Positions 1,877 through 12,324 of a stretch of DNA of 64,000 bases are shown here, in pieces. Source of the DNA: a bacterium. Its GTDB lineage: Bacteria > Zhuqueibacterota > Zhuqueibacteria > Residuimicrobiales > Krinioviventaceae. Within the stretch, counting starts at the first letter, position 1. Each line of letters starts with the position of its first letter. The notes beneath the pieces are model-generated. The model saw only the letters and a list, made by a program, of their open reading frames with translations. It ran no database searches and had not been told where the DNA came from. Location of the stretch: the NCBI GenBank assembly GCA_963693055.1, contig OY843751.1, positions 6,080,001 through 6,144,000 of the forward strand, in the 5' to 3' direction. A program made the position numbers and the translations under genes.

Positions 1877-2077
1877 ATTAATTTCCTCAGGTTTATTGTT
1901 TTCTTTATTGCATACAACAACACAGCACGGTGGAATCTTTCAATAAAATATTGAAATAGTGAATATAATATTTATATTACAGAATTGAAAAAAATAATTT
2001 TCCTTTTAACGGATTGATATCATTAACCATAGATAAAAGCCAATAAAGATCAATCGCTACATAAAGATTTTTATAAT

Positions 2078-2097
2078 TAGCCACGGATCAACACGGG
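2078..2097 (+). repeat. 10-nt-period repeat family A, left-type arm (AGCCACGGATCAACACGG)
   Basis: Inverted match to 2651-2681; similar to 5069-5100, 12339-12360 and 42332-42359. Confidence 0.7.
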
Positions 2098-2155
2098 TGA
2101 AAAAACTAAAATCCCAGGTGGTTATGTGACTTGTTCTCATTCATGGAATGAAAGT

Positions 2156-2628
2156 ATGGCTTATTGTAAATCACTTTTAGTTTTATTATGTCTTTTTCTA
2201 ACCTCCTGTGGTAGAGGCTATCTCCTAATCGGGAAGGTTATTTCTGTTCAAAATGTTTCAGAAAGTAAAATAATTGATATTTCTGACAAGATTGAGATTA
2301 CATCAACATCTGATCTTTCAATTGCAGGTAAAATTGATTCAGTCACTGCTTTACTTATAAAAGAGCCCTTTACTCCATTAGGGCATACCAAAGTTCGACA
2401 AATTATTCATCCTAACGCTAATGGCGATTATGATCCTTTAACTCGTCCACAAAAAGCAATTTACACCCAAGATAATGGTTTTTTTTCATTGAAACTTATG
2501 GACCTCCTGTAAAAAAAAGCATTGCAAAACTTGTCGTTCACAAAAAAGGATATAAAAGTTTTGAAACAACATATTGGGATTTTGCTTCAAATAATTCAAT
2601 TTTTATTATTATTTTGGCAATAGAGTAA
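2156..2628 (+). pseudogene. Lipoprotein, frameshifted at a T8 tract (2479-2486)
   Basis: Lipobox LTSC. The ORF stops at 2512; adding one T continues it as FFFIETYGPPVKKSIAKLVVHKKGYKSFE... to TAA 2626-2628. Confidence 0.6.
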
Positions 2629-2650
2629 ATTTAGGATTAAATTGTTTTTT

Positions 2651-2681
2651 ATCCGTGTTAATCCGTGAAAATCTGTGGCTA
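2651..2681 (-). repeat. Repeat family A, right-type arm (ATCCGTGTTA ATCCGTGAAA ATCTGTGGCT)
   Basis: Three 10-nt units; reverse complement of the left-type arms. Confidence 0.75.
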
Positions 2682-2789
2682 AAAATTTTTTAAATTAATA
2701 ATACCTCAAGATCATTGTATTAAATTCATTTTAATGATATAAAGAGAATAATTATAACATCTTGATAAAATAAACCCTGGAGAGCAAGC

Positions 2790-5174: not shown

Positions 5175-5262
5175 GATCGCCGGGTGTCTTTATTCCAGAC
5201 GGAATGATACGACCGGACATGTGTTCGGTTCTTACCAGCTCGGCACTCTGGTACCGGGCGAT
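5175..5262 (+). repeat. Structured repeat family B, copy 1 (internally deleted)
   Basis: GATCGCCGGGTGT...GGAATGATAC.ACCGGACATGTGT.CGGTTCT...CTGGTACCGGGCGAT; shared with 8045 and 12244. Confidence 0.85.
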
Positions 5263-5349
5263 AAAAGTAAAAAATCAGCTTGTAATGATTTGTTTTTTTT
5301 ATTAAACTCTTTTTCAAATTACCAGTAAAACATTAATTTGGATCCCAAA

Positions 5350-6300
5350 ATGTCACTTATATCTATAGTGGTTCCGTTATTAAACGAAGAAACCAATGCA
5401 AATACAATTTATGACCGATGCAGAAATGTATTCCAAAAAATCGAACAAGATTATGAATTTGTAATAATAGATGATGGAAGTACAGATAATACATTAACCG
5501 TTTTAAAAGACCTTGCGGAAACTGACAAAAAAGTCAAGATACTATCATTTTCAAGGAATTTTGGACACCAATCTGCTATAACTGCCGGAATTGATTATGC
5601 CCAGGGTGATGCAGTGGTTATCATTGACGGTGACCTTCAAGATCCTCCGGAATTAATCCCCCAGATGATCGAAAAATGGAAAGAGGGATATCAGGTTGTA
5701 TATGCAAAACGCACAAAACGCAAGGGGGAAACATTTTTTAAAAAAACAACCGCTTCTTTATTTTACAGAACATTCCAATATCTTGCCAACGCACAAATCC
5801 CTCTGGACACTGGTGATTTCAGATTAATGGATAGATCAGTTGTTGATTCTTTAAAAGAACTCAAAGAACGAAACCGATTTATCAGAGGATTGGTTTATTG
5901 GGTAGGGTTCAATCAAATTGGTGTTGAATATGAACGGGATGAAAGAAAAACAGGAGAAAGTAAATATCCCTTGTCAAAAATGGTTCGTTTTGCCAGCAAC
6001 GGTATTTTTTCTTTTTCCGACAAACCACTCAGACTCGCTACAATTATGGGTTTACTTTCTTCAATGCTGGGTTTAATCATGATTTTTTGGGGCCTTTATT
6101 CAAAATTCGTTTTGTCAGATACTACTATACGAGGGTGGACATCAGTCTTTATATCAATTTTGTTCTTAGGCGGAATTCAATTATTTACGCTGGGCATCAT
6201 CGGTGAATATATTAGCAGAATATACGATGAGTTAAAAGCCAGACCCATCTACATTATTCAGGAAAAAATTAATATTCCTACCGGAGATAATAATGAGTAA
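5350..6300 (+). CDS. GT2 polyprenol-phosphate glycosyltransferase (GtrB/YkcC/ArnC-like)
   Basis: IDDGSTD, RNFGHQ, DGDLQDPPE, GDFRL; two C-terminal TM helices. Confidence 0.92.
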   Translation: MSLISIVVPLLNEETNANTIYDRCRNVFQKIEQDYEFVIIDDGSTDNTLTVLKDLAETDKKVKILSFSRNFGHQSAITAGIDYAQGDAVVIIDGDLQDPPELIPQMIEKWKEGYQVVYAKRTKRKGETFFKKTTASLFYRTFQYLANAQIPLDTGDFRLMDRSVVDSLKELKERNRFIRGLVYWVGFNQIGVEYERDERKTGESKYPLSKMVRFASNGIFSFSDKPLRLATIMGLLSSMLGLIMIFWGLYSKFVLSDTTIRGWTSVFISILFLGGIQLFTLGIIGEYISRIYDELKARPIYIIQEKINIPTGDNNE

Positions 6301-8008
6301 AAAAATTGTCGTTCTGTTGACTGTTATTATTCTTGTTAAAATTCTGATTCATATCCCTGTAATAAACTATGGAATGCCCTATTCACTTGGAAATTCCGAT
6401 GAAAATGATTTTATTGGAACAGCTTTAAATTATGGCGCCACGAAATCTCTCAAACCGATCATTACATGGTATCCTGCCTTTTATTCCTATGTCCTGACAG
6501 GAGCCATAGGTATTTACTTTATAATTTTAATGCTAACTGGAGCTATTGCTTCAATAAACGACTTTGCTGTGCATTATCTTTTATATCCCGGATATTTTCA
6601 CATGCTTGGTAGAATTTTGTCATTATTACTCATATCTTTGGCTATTATTTTTATATATTTAACTGGAAAAATTTTAAAAAATGAAAAAACAGGGATATAT
6701 GCCGCTTTTGGTTTAGCATTTTCAAGCATGCTTACCCAAAGAACAATTTGGGCCTTACCTTCAAGTACAATTATTATCACTCTTGTGCTTTCATTATATT
6801 TCCTGGTCCACTTTATTAACAAGCATAAATCTATATATATGGTTTGGGCGGGCCTTTTTTGCGGTTTAGCAATATCAACAAAATACAATGCCGGCCCCTT
6901 TATGCTGGTTGGATTTTTTGCCATTATGCTGTTATTAAAAGAAAAACATGATAATTTTTTATCAATCGCAGTATTCAAAGATTTTTTAAAAACAGCACCC
7001 CTTTATTTGTTTTTTTCTTTTATTGTTATCGGCTTTATTTTAGGGAGTCCTTATTGGATTATTGAATTACAGGAAAATCTTAAGGGCCTTGCTTGGGAAT
7101 TGGGACGCCTGAACGCTGAAAACAGCGGCTCAGACTTTTTTCTCTCTAAAATACCCTATTTATGGATTTTTTCAGAGTTGGTTATCCGCGAAAAAATATT
7201 AGGTTTGACTATGGTTTTAAGCATTTTTTATTCCATATATCTTTTATTCAAAAAAGACAAAACCGCCTTATTATTAACCCCGTTTATTCTAGTCAGCATT
7301 CTGCTAATTGGTAAATACCAAAAGCATTCTTTACATTATATGCTTCCTGTATTCCCTGTTCTTGTACTTTTGTGCGCAACTGTTTTTGATTCATGGATTG
7401 AGAAACAAAAACCTTTAATCAAAAGGCTGACTATAGGATTTATTGTTGTAATCACTTTTTTCCCTTTTCATAATTTTATCACCTATTCGCTATCTCATCT
7501 AAAACAGGATGCTCGTTTACAGGCAAGCAACTGGATTCAAAACAATATACCAACCGGTTCAACTATTGCTGTAGGAAAAACATCTTTTTCTGCCCCCCTA
7601 CCTGATAAAATTCGATTTGAAAAAAAATTCTATTCTTCAATTGGAGAACAGGTAATGGCCCAAAAATTACCTGAAATTCATAAATCATTATACAAAGAAA
7701 ATTTGGATAAAAAGGGGTATAATCTAGTTAATTATATAATCAAGCAATCTGTTGGCAGGACAGGTTCTTTTTCTCAAATGATGAAAGATATTAAAATTTT
7801 ACCATTTGATGATATCATACAGCAAAATGCTGAATATTTAATTGTTTCAAGTATGGATCTGGTATACTATAAAAAAGAAGGGAAAACTTCTTTACTCGAT
7901 TTTCCCGAATACAAAGAACATCTTTTACTTTTAAAATCATTTGCAAAAAAAGATTTAGACCAATTTGTTCAAATATATAAAATTATCCCATACGATCAGC
8001 AAGATTAA
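6293..8008 (+). CDS. GT-C fold membrane glycosyltransferase (ArnT/PMT-like)
   Basis: SDE motif in the first loop, GLAISTKY, many TM segments; ATGAGTAA overlap with the GT2 gene. Confidence 0.8.
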   Translation: MSKKIVVLLTVIILVKILIHIPVINYGMPYSLGNSDENDFIGTALNYGATKSLKPIITWYPAFYSYVLTGAIGIYFIILMLTGAIASINDFAVHYLLYPGYFHMLGRILSLLLISLAIIFIYLTGKILKNEKTGIYAAFGLAFSSMLTQRTIWALPSSTIIITLVLSLYFLVHFINKHKSIYMVWAGLFCGLAISTKYNAGPFMLVGFFAIMLLLKEKHDNFLSIAVFKDFLKTAPLYLFFSFIVIGFILGSPYWIIELQENLKGLAWELGRLNAENSGSDFFLSKIPYLWIFSELVIREKILGLTMVLSIFYSIYLLFKKDKTALLLTPFILVSILLIGKYQKHSLHYMLPVFPVLVLLCATVFDSWIEKQKPLIKRLTIGFIVVITFFPFHNFITYSLSHLKQDARLQASNWIQNNIPTGSTIAVGKTSFSAPLPDKIRFEKKFYSSIGEQVMAQKLPEIHKSLYKENLDKKGYNLVNYIIKQSVGRTGSFSQMMKDIKILPFDDIIQQNAEYLIVSSMDLVYYKKEGKTSLLDFPEYKEHLLLLKSFAKKDLDQFVQIYKIIPYDQQD

Positions 8009-8044
8009 GTAAAACATATTTTAAAAGTCGCAATTTAATTCTAT

Positions 8045-8263
8045 GATCGCCGGGTGTATTTACGCCCGGCGGAATGATACCACCGGACATGTGTCCGGTT
8101 CTCTGGGACGAATGTCCGGTATTAAATCCGCCCGGACCCTGAGTTCTCACTCGTCCGCTGTCGCTTTGCGGACGAGTGAGAGTATCGAAGGGCCGGGAAG
8201 AAAAACAATATGAATATGATCTCCAATTATGATTTCAGCCAGGTAACCAAATACCAGGCGATC
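8045..8263 (+). repeat. Structured repeat family B, copy 2, with a nested ~110-bp insert
   Basis: Termini GATCGCCGGGT...ACCAGGCGATC; the insert contains a perfect 14-bp stem 8145-8158/8168-8181. Confidence 0.85.
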
Positions 8264-8353
8264 AAGGTACAACTATCAGACCCCTGACAAGGCCTTCGCT
8301 TAACTCATCAACCCTGACAATACCATTATCTTTCAATTAGCATTCAAATCTAA

Positions 8354-8430
8354 ATGTCCCGTTAGGGACAAAATATTTATAGAACTGTAAAAATGAGAAT
8401 TCGCATGCCGTCAGGTATGCAATATTGTAG
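8354..8430 (+). repeat. REP-like palindrome pair, family C (TGTCCCGTTAGGGACA; GCATGCCGTCAGGTATGC)
   Basis: Two short hairpins, each followed by AATATT(N)1-3TAGA; architecture resembles REP doublets. Confidence 0.55.
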
Positions 8431-8576
8431 AGTTTTATCATATATAAATAGTATCATATGACCAGAGGAGAAAAAGAAATTTATAAAACCCCCTAAAAAT
8501 ACAACGGAGCGTCAGATCATTAATAAATTTGGTGATCTGTCATTCTGAAAGTAATAAAAGGGAAATATAAAAGCAA

Positions 8577-9401
8577 CTAATTGTTCTTTGAAAGATTCAA
8601 CTGACTCCTTTGATTTTTAATTTTATCAGGCAAAAGATCAACATATTGTTGTATGACACGTTTGGAAAGTCTTGCCAGCTGGCTGATTTGATCAAGGTTT
8701 TTAATGTCATGCTTCCAAAGTAATTCAACACGATGGTAATCTTTGATATACCTGTCAACCGCTTCGTTGCTGTGTTTGGTTTTCAAAGCGATTTCGGGAG
8801 TGAGATATCCCTCAAGATACAGAGTGATAATTTCGCGTTTATGAGTAATAGCGCCGGAAAGATCATGGATGTTGCCACGCGTTGGTAAGAGATGCCCTTC
8901 TTTTTGGATTTCATTTACATATTTACTGACAACGGCATCACAGACACCGAGTAACATAGCCAGGTCAAGTTGAGTAAGCAGAGCACCTTGATCAAAAGCT
9001 TCATCAACCCAACGTTTGAGGCGTCTTTTCCTTAAAGTTTTGGAATCAAAACCATGCGCGATATGAGAAGTATCCTGATCAGTAATGAAAGAGAGGACAA
9101 CGGGTTTCATTCGGGTAGCGGCAATACTTTTTCCGCGTTTGGGGTATTCATCGACAGGAACAGCCATCCAGACGAGTTGCCCATAGTGAATATGGTGCAA
9201 GTCATCATCAATAGAGGAGACAAGGAAATAGTCATCAATGATTTTAAGGATATCATCAATGATGGCATTGGCAGTGATGGCTCCTTTGTCATAGCCATAG
9301 CTATTCAAAAAGTTGTACAGTAGTAACTGCTTGAGATCTTTATCTTTAAGTCGTCTCATTTTTTTGAGTTGAATTTGTTCTTTAGTCAAAGGTTTACTCA
9401 T
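8577..9401 (-). CDS. DUF1670-like protein B (HTH-containing)
   Basis: EAFDQGALLTQLDLAMLLGV, PTRG..HD, THKREII.LYLEG, KHS...VDRY; start 9401 with GGAGG RBS overlaps the stop of paralogue A. Confidence 0.75.
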   Translation of the reverse strand: MSKPLTKEQIQLKKMRRLKDKDLKQLLLYNFLNSYGYDKGAITANAIIDDILKIIDDYFLVSSIDDDLHHIHYGQLVWMAVPVDEYPKRGKSIAATRMKPVVLSFITDQDTSHIAHGFDSKTLRKRRLKRWVDEAFDQGALLTQLDLAMLLGVCDAVVSKYVNEIQKEGHLLPTRGNIHDLSGAITHKREIITLYLEGYLTPEIALKTKHSNEAVDRYIKDYHRVELLWKHDIKNLDQISQLARLSKRVIQQYVDLLPDKIKNQRSQLNLSKNN

Positions 9402-10233
9402 TTTCTTTGCCTCCTGATAGATGTTGAGGAATGGATTTTTTTTTCGCGTCGCCACCAGGTTCCGCAGGAGATAACAGATCGTTTAATCGCGTATTGTTTT
9501 GTTGAAGATAGGTTTGGTAGAGTTGGATATACTCGCGCACCAGGCGGTCGGATTTCTTTGCAATGAGTCGAATCTGGTTCGGAGAGAAATTTTCCTTGTA
9601 TAAAAGGGCGATCTGCATAAAGTCAGCGAGGTAACGTTTGATGCTGGTTTCAGAATGATTGGTTTTTTGTTCTATTTCTGAAAAGGTATAACCTTTAAGA
9701 TACAGATCAATAATGATGGTTTTATGAGACAGTCCGGGACCCATGTCATGTTTCATACCTCGTGTCATGATAAACATACCGTGATGACGGAGATGATAAA
9801 TGTCACGTTTAACAGTGGCCGGACTGGTGGTTAAAAGCATTGCCAGGTCTTCATAGCTGAGTAAAGCACCCTGATCATAGGCTTGTCGAGTCAGACGGGC
9901 GATCCGGTGTCGTCTAAGTCCGGCAAGGCCATAATTAGCCAGGGCTTGCAGATCTGTATTAAAGTCAATTAGTTTGAGACGGACCGTAAGCTTTCGGGTT
10001 AATCTGATATGTTTGCCGGCTGGTTCTTCAGCGGCAACAGCTTCATAAGCGACTTCACCTCCTGATAATGAAATGTTGGAATGTTCCTGAAAGTATTGGT
10101 CAAATTGTTGATAGTAAGCTTCGGCAATAATAGGAGTCAAATTGAAATCCTGAGACAGTTTTTGGACAATAGCGTTTTTAGCTGTCTTGGATTCGAGTCT
10201 TTTTAAACCATAATTATTTTTAACATCTGCCAT
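9394..10233 (-). CDS. DUF1670-like protein A (HTH-containing)
   Basis: QAYDQGALLSYEDLAMLL..S..TVKRDI, TRG..HD.G, SHK.III.LYLKG, NHS..SIKRY; paralogous to 8577-9401; AGGAG RBS. Confidence 0.8.
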   Translation of the reverse strand: MADVKNNYGLKRLESKTAKNAIVQKLSQDFNLTPIIAEAYYQQFDQYFQEHSNISLSGGEVAYEAVAAEEPAGKHIRLTRKLTVRLKLIDFNTDLQALANYGLAGLRRHRIARLTRQAYDQGALLSYEDLAMLLTTSPATVKRDIYHLRHHGMFIMTRGMKHDMGPGLSHKTIIIDLYLKGYTFSEIEQKTNHSETSIKRYLADFMQIALLYKENFSPNQIRLIAKKSDRLVREYIQLYQTYLQQNNTRLNDLLSPAEPGGDAKKKSIPQHLSGGKENE

Positions 10234-10481
10234 AAGAATCTCCTTATTTCTGTTTTTATTAAAACAATGATTCCTATGGTCATATGCACTAAACTTTAAA
10301 AACCGTGAAATCCTGTTGTTTTTTCATATTGACTATTATAATCTCAATCATTAATTTTTAAAATGGCGGGAGTTTCTTATGTTGCAGGGGAACGACATCA
10401 CCTAACTCATAATTCAAACAATACATTTAATACACTGAGTAAAATACGATTACTCTTTACTCACTAATAGCAGGGTCAAAT

Positions 10482-12146
10482 ATGAAAACCATAAACATTC
10501 TTTTTATTTACCTGATTACATTATCTATCAATGTATTCGCTGTTAATACTTTTCAATACAAAAAGATACTTCCCCGCAGTCAATGGTCTGACTATACACC
10601 TGACAGACCACATACCGCGGTATTGATGAGTGATGATGGAAATATTATTGTCGCAAGTCAGGCCTTTTCTTCGGAATGCATAGTAATGCAGAAAATTGAT
10701 CCGTATGGAAATCCCTTGTGGGCTGATCCTGAAACCGGTTTGAAACTCGTTGATAACACATCTTCTATAGATGTTAATTATTATCCGTCTATGGCAAGTG
10801 ATGGCAATGGAGGCGTATATATTGTTTATGCTGCCGGTATTTATGCAATAGAGGGAAATGATTGGAGATTTTATTTTGATACCTATCTTCAGCATTTAGA
10901 TGCTGATGGAAATAAACAGTGGAATGATAAAGGATTATTGTTAAAAACCGGATCATACCCTTGGGATATAGCCAGCGATGGTGAAGGAGGAGTGTATGTA
11001 TTATATTATGGAAGCTCTAATTGCGATCATTATCCGGGAACCCTTTTGCAGCATATTAATAAAGCGGGTGAAAAAAAATATCCAGGATTCGGTTTTGCTA
11101 TTATGGAATGTGATTCTTTATATTTAAACAGGCTTTATCTGGATGGCAATCATGGTATTTATATATCTAATAAAAATAATTATCTGCAGCGGATGAATGA
11201 AGAAGGAGAGTTTCTTTTTCCAATGCCATACATTGATACTGGCCTACCAAATCTACTTTTTCAATGGTTTTTTAATAAAGGTGAAGAAATGATTCTTGCT
11301 GGTAAAGAAAAAGGCACAAATAACTTGTATGTTCAAAAGCTGTCAGTTGATGGTGAATATCTTGGGAACCCAAATGGATACACATATACATGGCCGGATT
11401 CTTTAATTTTTTTCCCTGTAATAATTCAAAAAAATGACAGCACACTTTCTGTTTTTAATGGCTATTATGCACAAAACATTCAAATCAAACCCGTTTTTCA
11501 ATTTAAAAACCCTATCAGAATTATGGAAAAACAGATTAATTATCCTAGAGTTTTATATTCTGTTTATACTAAATTATATGGTACATTTATACTTTTTGGA
11601 GATGTGAAATATGAAGACGGAAAAAACCATTCACTTGTTAAAATGCAAAAAATTGATAAAACAGGAGGTTTGCCATTAGGTATCGAAGGAATAACAATTT
11701 GTGATACTACGAGTATGCTGTCAATACTTAACCCATTATTTACTATAAACGAACAAACTGGAACAGCACTGGTTTTTCTTGAATTTCAAGATGGTTTACA
11801 TGTAGCCATTGTTGATCTCAAAACCGGTACAGTTGTTGATGATAAAGATGAACAAATTAATTCAAAGATTCCTGATAATTTTATTATTTCCGGATATCCC
11901 AATCCATTTCACGAAGTAATCCATTTTACTATAAAAAAGCCTAATCTGTCCGACAGGATACAAACAATAAAAATTTACAATATTCTCGGAAAGGAGGTCA
12001 AAGACCTTACACAAAAAGAAATATCAACACACACATTTTCATGGGATGGAACAGATGATTCCGGTCAGCGGGCGGCTGCCGGTATCTATTTTGTTCAAAT
12101 TACCGCAAAACAAACATTCACTCAAAAAATACTGAAACTGAAATAA
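10482..12146 (+). CDS. Secreted beta-propeller-like protein with C-terminal FlgD-Ig/sorting domain
   Basis: Signal peptide; SDG.GGVY repeats; YPNPF...IYNILGKEV...WDG...GIYF. Confidence 0.75.
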   Translation: MKTINILFIYLITLSINVFAVNTFQYKKILPRSQWSDYTPDRPHTAVLMSDDGNIIVASQAFSSECIVMQKIDPYGNPLWADPETGLKLVDNTSSIDVNYYPSMASDGNGGVYIVYAAGIYAIEGNDWRFYFDTYLQHLDADGNKQWNDKGLLLKTGSYPWDIASDGEGGVYVLYYGSSNCDHYPGTLLQHINKAGEKKYPGFGFAIMECDSLYLNRLYLDGNHGIYISNKNNYLQRMNEEGEFLFPMPYIDTGLPNLLFQWFFNKGEEMILAGKEKGTNNLYVQKLSVDGEYLGNPNGYTYTWPDSLIFFPVIIQKNDSTLSVFNGYYAQNIQIKPVFQFKNPIRIMEKQINYPRVLYSVYTKLYGTFILFGDVKYEDGKNHSLVKMQKIDKTGGLPLGIEGITICDTTSMLSILNPLFTINEQTGTALVFLEFQDGLHVAIVDLKTGTVVDDKDEQINSKIPDNFIISGYPNPFHEVIHFTIKKPNLSDRIQTIKIYNILGKEVKDLTQKEISTHTFSWDGTDDSGQRAAAGIYFVQITAKQTFTQKILKLK

Positions 12147-12243
12147 TACTTATTAGAGGGGTAATGCAATTCAATACATTTGCATTTTTAATTTTATTAC
12201 CCATCACAAATTTTGCTGCAAATATTGATATAGGATAGGAGAC

Positions 12244-12324
12244 TGATACTTCTAAACATGTATCCGGTTCTCCGGGTCGAATATCCCGTCATAAATTCCG
12301 CCCGGACCCTGGTACCAGGCGATC
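12244..12324 (+). repeat. Structured repeat family B, copy 3 (5' truncated)
   Basis: TGATAC...ACATGTATCCGGTTCTCCGGG...TTCCGCCCGGACCCTGGTACCAGGCGATC. Confidence 0.8.

Follow-up and report, generated by a model that had tools for sequence, protein, structure and literature searches.

Repetitive extragenic palindromes (REPs) accompanied by a REP-associated tyrosine transposase (RAYT) are the closest described relatives of the sequences reported here. For REPtrons and REPIN-RAYT systems (REPINs being paired REPs), represented by E. coli TnpA-REP with its bacterial interspersed mosaic elements and by the REPINs of Pseudomonas, the accessible text of PMC3333891, PMC8266576 and bioRxiv 10.1101/2021.07.10.451892 describes hairpins that carry a tag, heterodimeric doublets whose inverted units are separated by a short spacer, tandem arrays surrounding one Y1 HUH transposase gene, an intergenic position in 3′ flanks and persistence after loss of the gene. 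We found likenesses to all of these in a repeat family represented by three GC-rich elements in a 64,000-nucleotide window of a Krinioviventaceae genome (GCA_963693055.1, contig OY843751.1, positions 6,080,001 to 6,144,000). Compared with the described systems, the family carries a (T)GAT/GATCG tag instead of GTAG, has two hairpins per half and is associated in relatives with a gene that lies inside one doublet and encodes a group 5 / subclass 2.6-type enzyme. The element is thus a known kind of repeat. The three copies are probably degraded REPINs that now serve as passive homology anchors for gene recombination, and their hotspot effect is weaker but present in other repeat families. The genome (G000) is one complete chromosome of 6.54 Mb with 39.4% GC, in which the window covers 6.08-6.14 Mb; a congener, G001, is about 92% identical. 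The host is probably KSB1-like, a hint given by one LacI homologue of that name with 58% identity. Other G and L labels denote genomes and extracted loci, and genes are crude longest-open-reading-frame calls.

Two further systems are similar in part. TnpA-Y1 subclass 2.6 (Quentin et al. 2018, PMC6006769) shares the protein motifs, length and HUH-Y distance described below, and its genes are flanked by 'atypical' non-GTAG hairpins with copies elsewhere, its REPs having no GT[AG]G tag. In the available text of that paper, however, the subclass is mostly found in Bacteroidetes and has single hairpins, whereas here double-hairpin halves form doublets throughout the genome. GATCG occurs 7 times in its supplementary Table S1, and in that table never as the foot of a subclass 2.6 hairpin. 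TIRtrons with their TIRYTs (Di Nocera et al. 2013) place a tyrosine-transposase gene between inverted arms, some of them self-complementary or double-palindromic, and form gene-less dimers elsewhere; in contrast to their text description in PMC3733652, the arms found here are mostly non-complementary beyond about 6 bp. According to the accessible part of a 2022 preprint (bioRxiv 10.1101/2021.07.10.451892), only RAYTs of groups 2 and 3 are associated with REPINs. Our literature search, with little coverage of subscription journals, found no description of the GATCG tag, the double hairpin or the genome-wide doublets of this family.

The half-element consists of a (T)GAT tag, a 10-bp hairpin, a short linker such as GAATAT-N5 and a second hairpin of 6-7 bp. 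Among 125 halves, the G, A and T of the tag were conserved in 118, 121 and 125, respectively, and a T preceded GAT in 97 of 119 halves, the matches having been chosen to start at the tag. The tag is therefore TGAT/GATCG, not the canonical GT[AG]G of REPs. Two inverted halves, usually unlike in stem sequence, make up a doublet; ten complete doublets span 90-149 bp. End-to-end pairing in the doublets is restricted to about 6 terminal bp, and positions 7-13 pair locally within the halves in 97% but end to end in 53%. A first-pass annotation of the window had described a repeat of about 110 bp with terminal inverted repeats. The inverted repeats exist over about 6 bp; the arms behind them fold locally, the two outer hairpins had been missed, none of the three copies has the proposed length and the consensus proves to be a composite.

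The family is dispersed over the chromosome. An iterative nhmmer search with the 52-nt 5′ part gave 61 matches, and a family hidden Markov model matched 68 times in G000 and 0 times in the reversed genome, which places the similarity far above chance. With a covariance model (CM) and 150 candidates scored per genome, 69 halves were detected in G000 and 100 in G001 at E ≤ 0.1. The G000 halves group into 53 intergenic loci; in 39 of them all halves lie on one strand, and the other 14 contain both orientations. Hence the three window copies are indeed related, as had been noted, but they represent 3 of about 53 dispersed loci and not a cassette array confined to this site. At E ≤ 1e-4 the CM was positive in 12 of 19 genomes of the bacterial family, and 9 of the 18 others have at least 8 halves. 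A restriction of the repeat to the genus, suggested by an exact degenerate pattern present in 2 of 41 relatives (only G001 among species representatives), was overturned by this CM result.

Covariation, proposed as a check by the first-pass annotation, was evident. In 123 distinct halves 92.9% of the cells were paired, compared with 74.1% after shuffling and 29-44% in slid controls, and 14 of 17 base pairs showed two-sided changes. The alignment scored above each of the 500 shuffles in four of five measures and above every slid control. G-T pairs outnumbered A-C pairs (114 vs 51), so the tag-bearing strand is the folding one. This evidence leans in favour of a structure that would fit RNA or single-stranded DNA alike. 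Of the 39 loci with same-strand halves, 28 lie downstream of a gene on the same strand, at a median of 73 bp past the stop codon, and convergent gaps are over-represented among the repeat loci (15/53 vs 260/2292). A replichore bias of half loci was absent (22 leading vs 17 lagging). Furthermore, other repeats are nested with the doublets and interrupt them.

The three window elements, all on the + strand with a GC content of 0.52-0.56, differ in completeness. Copy 1 (5175-5262, 88 bp) starts 172 bp after the upstream + strand stop codon and is a REPIN-like doublet with an internal deletion: the 5′ half is complete (CM match 5175-5231, E 7.5e-13), the middle is gone and the 3′ outer hairpin is retained. 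Both of its outer hairpins agree with the single full-length copy of G001. Copy 2 (8045-8263, 219 bp), 37 bp after a stop codon, is a full doublet with GATC at both termini (CM match 8045-8101, E 6e-16; weak reverse match 8207-8263; fold z -8.8). Its 3′ half is interrupted, and it holds an extra spacer and a nested, perfect 62-bp hairpin without strand assignment (8135-8196), which belongs to a different repeat family as judged from its DNA fold (z -5.1) and alignment. Copy 3 (12244-12324, 81 bp), about 98 bp after a stop codon, is a doublet without the 5′ outer hairpin, in which the 3′ half forms an intact half on the - strand (CM match 12270-12324, E 3.5e-7); G001 has a full-length copy at this site. 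In genome-wide blastn, copies 1 and 3 matched copy 2 with E values of 4e-14 and 7e-11, respectively.

Comparison with the congener revealed an empty site. Window positions 5233-8043 are absent from G001, which has one full-length element there, whereas G000 has copy 1, two glycosyltransferase genes and copy 2. The genes code for a PgfS/ArnC-like GT2 glycosyltransferase (5338-6300, + strand; Pfam PF00535, NCBIfam matches below cut-off) and a GT-C (PMT_2) membrane glycosyltransferase (6293-8008, + strand; Pfam PF13231). The single G001 element combines copy-1-type outer hairpins with a middle as in copy 2 and with the downstream flank of copy 2, which places the junction within the last few bases of the element. 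No match to the GT-C protein at E ≤ 1e-30 was found in any of the 18 other genomes of the bacterial family, and the best match, with 49% identity, comes from another family; this pattern favours gain in G000 over loss in G001. The GT-C gene was likely acquired horizontally, as judged from these matches. The five closest GT-C homologues from other families had no copy of the repeat next to them. All copies at the locus have a common locus-specific spacer, and the nested hairpin is present in three of them, namely copy 2 and both G001 copies at the locus. The copies thus arose by local duplication or conversion, not by arrival with different cargo. In the contigs of three sequencing runs of one sample, in which rare variants are dropped, neither a joint between copies nor an excised form was found.

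The first-pass annotation had further described the copies as enclosing AT-rich genes. This holds for GT2, GT-C and a secreted protein (GC 0.36, 0.32 and 0.34), but a DUF1670 block between copies 2 and 3 has the genome mean of 0.394 and is a separate insertion sequence (IS). The gene of the secreted protein, which has a FlgD-Ig/type IX secretion system (T9SS)-type tail according to Pfam (10482-12146, + strand), is present in both genomes. Its product is 48% identical to that of the syntenic G001 gene, the C-terminus being the same in both, and shares 66% identity with a G001 paralogue encoded elsewhere, so that the G000 gene is a divergent allele.

A candidate enzyme for the repeat was found in relatives. 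In G014 (L097, gene at 1628-2173 on the - strand) and G018 (L101, gene at 845-1396), which belong to other genera, an upstream half is followed by a RAYT gene, an inverted downstream half and tandem gene-less doublets. Since the RAYT gene occupies the spacer between inward-facing halves, the doublet corresponds to a REPtron minus its gene. Both RAYTs pass NCBIfam NF047646. The G018 protein has the motifs NHMH, WQ and YIHNNP, 183 amino acids (aa) and a HUH-Y distance of 82; the G014 protein has NHLH, WK and YIHDNP, 181 aa and a distance of 80. The subclass 2.6 signature given in the consulted part of PMC6006769 is NH[LIV]H, WQ and YIH[QN]NP with 179 aa and a distance of 82. Both proteins would therefore fit the subclass 2.6 / group 5 motifs, each being off at one or two positions. 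A PDB sequence search with the G018 RAYT gave 0 matches.

The association was examined in 74 RAYT loci (16 from the bacterial-family search and 58 from phylum and metagenome searches, with the 38 weakest metagenome loci and fragments excluded). In a quick tree without bootstrap, calculated from 73 proteins after one short row had been dropped, 22 proteins formed one clade (SH-aLRT 96). Using a strict tag and loops of up to 20 nucleotides within 260 bp of the RAYT gene, an inward-facing GATCG hairpin was detected in 18 of 22 clade members but in only 2 of 51 proteins outside the clade. Two of the remaining four members have a GCTCG variant, and two were matched by the repeat-family CM, which in total gave matches within about 120 bp of the RAYT gene in 14 of 22 clade members. 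The REPIN option among the earlier proposals is supported by the covarying hairpins, the 5′ tag, the inverted doublets and these bracketed RAYT genes. Of the enzymes whose co-occurrence the first-pass annotation proposed to check, a RAYT accompanies the repeat in relatives; G000 has no clade RAYT, and an integron integrase was not detected.

Other candidate partners were considered. A RAYT among the copies in G001 (L049) and its broken relative in G000 were rejected, both having GTAG repeats of their own. G001 keeps an intact RAYT (L105, G001:C3:339171-342698) within a tandem array of ~2.9 kb belonging to a sister GATCG-tagged family with a loop of 15-16 nt; near the syntenic site G000 has a single doublet of this sister family without a gene (4907189-4907375). 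A nucleotidyltransferase pair precedes the empty doublets in G001 as well as the REPtron in G014 (44% identity). The G001 site was rejected as a proven emptied REPtron, the pair being present at only 1 of 22 clade loci.

A coincidence of REPs with gene exchange has been discussed before. In the E. coli O157 antigen cluster REPs coincide with insertion/deletion (indel) and recombination junctions around glycan genes; a role in transfer was speculated on and a genome-wide test called for, as stated in the accessible text of PMC3158064. The authors of another study, bioRxiv 10.1101/2020.03.09.984088, later did not find strong evidence that TnpA-REP causes gene diversification. In contrast to PMC3158064, the association was counted here over 1.32 Mb of a genome pair with other repeats as a control, giving a counted and controlled case of what had been speculation in those sources. 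The G000-G001 comparison comprised 572 kb chosen around repeats and 754 kb of unselected sequence from a single genome pair without independent replicates. It contained 115 indels of at least 500 bp, of which 99 were analysed after exclusion of 16 multi-copy IS.

Non-IS indels touched 25 of 41 G000 intergenic gaps with the GATC family, 33 of 85 with other repeats and 60 of 359 gaps free of repeats. A model that included log length gave odds ratios of about 6.2 for the GATC family and about 2.7 for other repeats. The gene-gain link suggested by the first-pass annotation thus agrees with both the empty site and these counts. Among 61 clean indels, direct duplications of at least 30 bp were present at 9 of 15 repeat-associated cases, compared with 6 of the other 46 and with 4 of 114 control pairs. 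Cargo genes were bracketed by directly duplicated halves in 4 of the 15 repeat indels (the window locus, L022, L028 and L029), and a fifth bracketing duplication, L050, has no gene. In the four bracketed cases the downstream copy begins at the tag, as homology alone would give. Over 17 cases the junction positions varied, and the duplications often took in flanks or gene ends. The cargo is mixed and includes outer-membrane barrels, T9SS-tailed proteins, toxin-antitoxin pairs, enzymes and a Gabija system. AT-rich neighbours were no commoner than beside other repeats (11/89 vs 48/401), a weak and non-specific association.

Beyond the observed architecture, covariation, REPtron association in relatives, empty site and indel enrichment, we propose that the elements are degraded REPINs, likely spread by a subclass-2.6-type RAYT that has since been lost, and that they now probably act as passive homology anchors for gene recombination carried out by the host in repeat-rich, tandem-duplicating gaps. 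By analogy with E. coli TnpA-REP and the IS200/IS605 paradigm, as presented in the available text of PMC8266576 and PMC3333891, the RAYT would have bound single-stranded DNA at the outer hairpin, guided by the tag. As for TnpA-REP, HUH nicking and rejoining would have spread and tandemly amplified the doublets. At the window locus, local duplication of the element may have accompanied the gain of the glycosyltransferase block, the junction falling within the final bases of that element, and present-day gene gain would proceed by host recombination with no dedicated cassette recombinase. Persistence and slow decay of REPINs after RAYT loss have been described (bioRxiv 10.1101/2021.07.10.451892; PMC3333891, in the portions accessible to us).

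Several results weigh against this explanation. A clade RAYT was found neither in the complete genome G000 nor in G001, so the link to the enzyme rests on the relatives. Copy number does not track RAYT presence (halves counted at E ≤ 1e-4, clade members at E ≤ 1e-55): G000, G001, G011, G013 and G016 have 58, 88, 76, 44 and 30 halves without a clade RAYT, three of these five assemblies being fragmented, whereas G014 and G018 have 21 and 12 halves with one, and G004, with three such genes, has 0 halves. In the 4 loci aligned, no case was found in which a lone doublet had cleanly entered an empty site. The covariation counts are inflated, because the alignment was fitted to the model and the copies are related. 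Moreover, the stronger enrichment of indels at the GATC family than at other repeats is not explained by passive anchoring alone, and only one genome pair was compared.

The alternative that survives best, although we regard it as unlikely, is mere co-location, in which insertion-tolerant gaps collect repeats and accessory genes and the repeat has no causal part. Repeat-bearing gaps are indeed mosaics of several families and longer than others (median 375 vs 165 bp), and the enrichment extends to other repeat families. The GATC family differs from other repeats only above 400 bp and is indistinguishable from them below; at 150-700 bp the difference is not significant (p 0.08). However, the enrichment over repeat-free gaps holds within length classes (19/33 vs 38/194 at 150-700 bp, p 1.5e-5), and the duplicated segment at the window locus is the element itself.

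An active role of the enzyme is clearly improbable. Here the RAYT itself would capture genes: it would nick 5′ of the tag, stay on the repeat strand and join foreign single-stranded DNA before the hairpin, which would give gene-repeat arrays and an HUH-based analogue of integrons. The bracketing of cargo by duplicated halves, the excess of direct duplications at repeat indels and the position of half loci after same-strand genes would suit such a process, as would the intact RAYT of G001 with its sister GATCG-tagged family. In addition, E. coli TnpA-REP joins a foreign 3′-OH to the cleaved strand in a cleavage and strand-transfer (CST) assay (PMC8266576, accessible part). But a junction at the tag says little, since by definition this is where the copies begin to be homologous, and the duplications often extend past the repeat or take in gene ends. 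No duplication was present at 6 of the 15 repeat-associated indels, lineage-specific gains occurred in G000 without a clade RAYT, and AT-rich neighbours were as frequent beside other repeats. The broader proposal, that a group-5 RAYT clade uses GATCG hairpins as landing sites for foreign DNA and thereby provides distributed, integrase-free capture of surface, glycan and defence genes, is likewise a long shot. If true, gene capture would be the long-sought host-beneficial function of RAYTs. On the proposal of degraded REPINs, REPIN-type doublets would extend to a RAYT group said to be without them, and the new tag and two-hairpin substrate come with a matched, directly assayable enzyme.

We also doubt, on balance strongly, that the half-element is mainly an RNA structure in 3′ untranslated regions (a stabilizer of mRNA, processing site or terminator) or a selected small RNA whose tie to the RAYT would be historical. 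In agreement with this possibility, the halves pair strongly and locally with G-U-type variation, same-strand half loci mostly lie in 3′ flanks, convergent gaps are in excess and many copies persist without an enzyme. On the other hand, Rfam gave 0 matches in the window at gathering score, presence and copy number vary freely between the two congeners, and other repeats are nested with the doublets and interrupt them; moreover, the features in agreement with an RNA role are also to be expected of REPs. The structured non-coding RNA named in the earlier annotation is improbable and unnecessary as an explanation, the covarying structure fitting RNA and single-stranded DNA alike. An RNA role would be compatible with the REPIN explanation as a secondary effect.

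Integron attC sites are strand-specific hairpins downstream of accessory genes, with the core-box consensus RYYYAAC ... GTTRRRY, and an empty location has one site and a filled one two, as at the window locus. An integron-type cassette system with attC-like sites served by a tyrosine recombinase, the analogy drawn by the first-pass annotation, would also suit the strand-specific folding and the one-orientation gene-plus-half arrays in G001 (L029, L030). It is nevertheless very improbable: no integron integrase exceeds the cut-off in the genome (best TIGR02249 match 80.9 bits, cut-off 265), the 7 tyrosine-recombinase matches all lie away from detected copies and the ends read GATCGC ... GCGATC without R-box consensus or core boxes. 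Moreover, the loci are dispersed over the chromosome with junctions that vary in position, the repeat is associated with a RAYT and other intergenic repeats are enriched at indels too. A miniature inverted-repeat transposable element, likewise proposed before, was rejected, as target-site duplications were absent by eye at 9 of 9 complete doublets.

The DUF1670 pair between copies 2 and 3 is an independent IS and not a cassette. It spans 1850 bp on the - strand (8448-10297; open reading frames 9394-10233 and 8577-9455), lies 185 bp beyond copy 2 outside the GATC repeat and has 15-bp subterminal inverted repeats, with an AA/TT dinucleotide duplicated on either side (8446-8447 and 10298-10299). 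Six copies with 100% identity are present, the others at G000 56383, 509732, 1346328, 2354410 and 3997442; targets are AT-rich, and two orthologous loci in G001 are empty. The IS was also recovered as a collapsed contig of 1854 bp in three runs of one sample. Its only genes are the two for DUF1670 proteins, which are 34% identical to each other, and no transposase was recognisable. A literature search for DUF1670 found no paper. A second DUF1670-pair family of 1891 bp has 7 copies, six of them at 99-100% identity (e.g. G000 987149-989039). Its left end supplies AAA TAA, most of its flanks resemble the ends of T9SS/FlgD-tailed genes and one copy abuts a first-family copy at about 509,730. At least three repeat families are mixed in the gap between copy 2 and the IS (8280-8445), which contains further palindromic repeats like those flanking an IS200-like gene at G000 5728012.

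Some loci with differing gene content deserve mention. The Gabija genes (GajA and GajB by PADLOC) directly follow a half-element at G000 3527975-3531564 (L273:976-4565); the G001 site has no Gabija and instead a nucleotidyltransferase gene with two doublets. AT-rich paralogues of an outer-membrane beta-barrel of ~220 aa often adjoin the repeat (G000 148196, 149311, 67268, 741308, 1411027, 6172168, 6173084 and 6440147; L030 and L047) with content differing between G000 and G001, and one G001 gene shares 94% identity with a G000 gene at a different locus. G001-specific tandem amplification of 230-330-bp mosaic units, each with several repeat families, was seen at L034:6900-7950, L050:8100-8870, L052:7400-7900 and L028:11250-11900, in one case including the last 60 bp of the upstream gene. 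A retron type III-A-like pair (phosphoribosyltransferase, PRTase, and reverse transcriptase by PADLOC) at G000 4444361-4446950 (L276:862-3451) is not at a repeat and is absent from the G001 site. Finally, at window positions 2071-2691 inverted repeats of another family enclose an open reading frame of 128 aa (2126-2512) in G000, and the same site in G001 (L021:4760-5122) holds a GxxExxY nuclease gene (TIGR04256), a swap of cargo between nuclease-associated arms.

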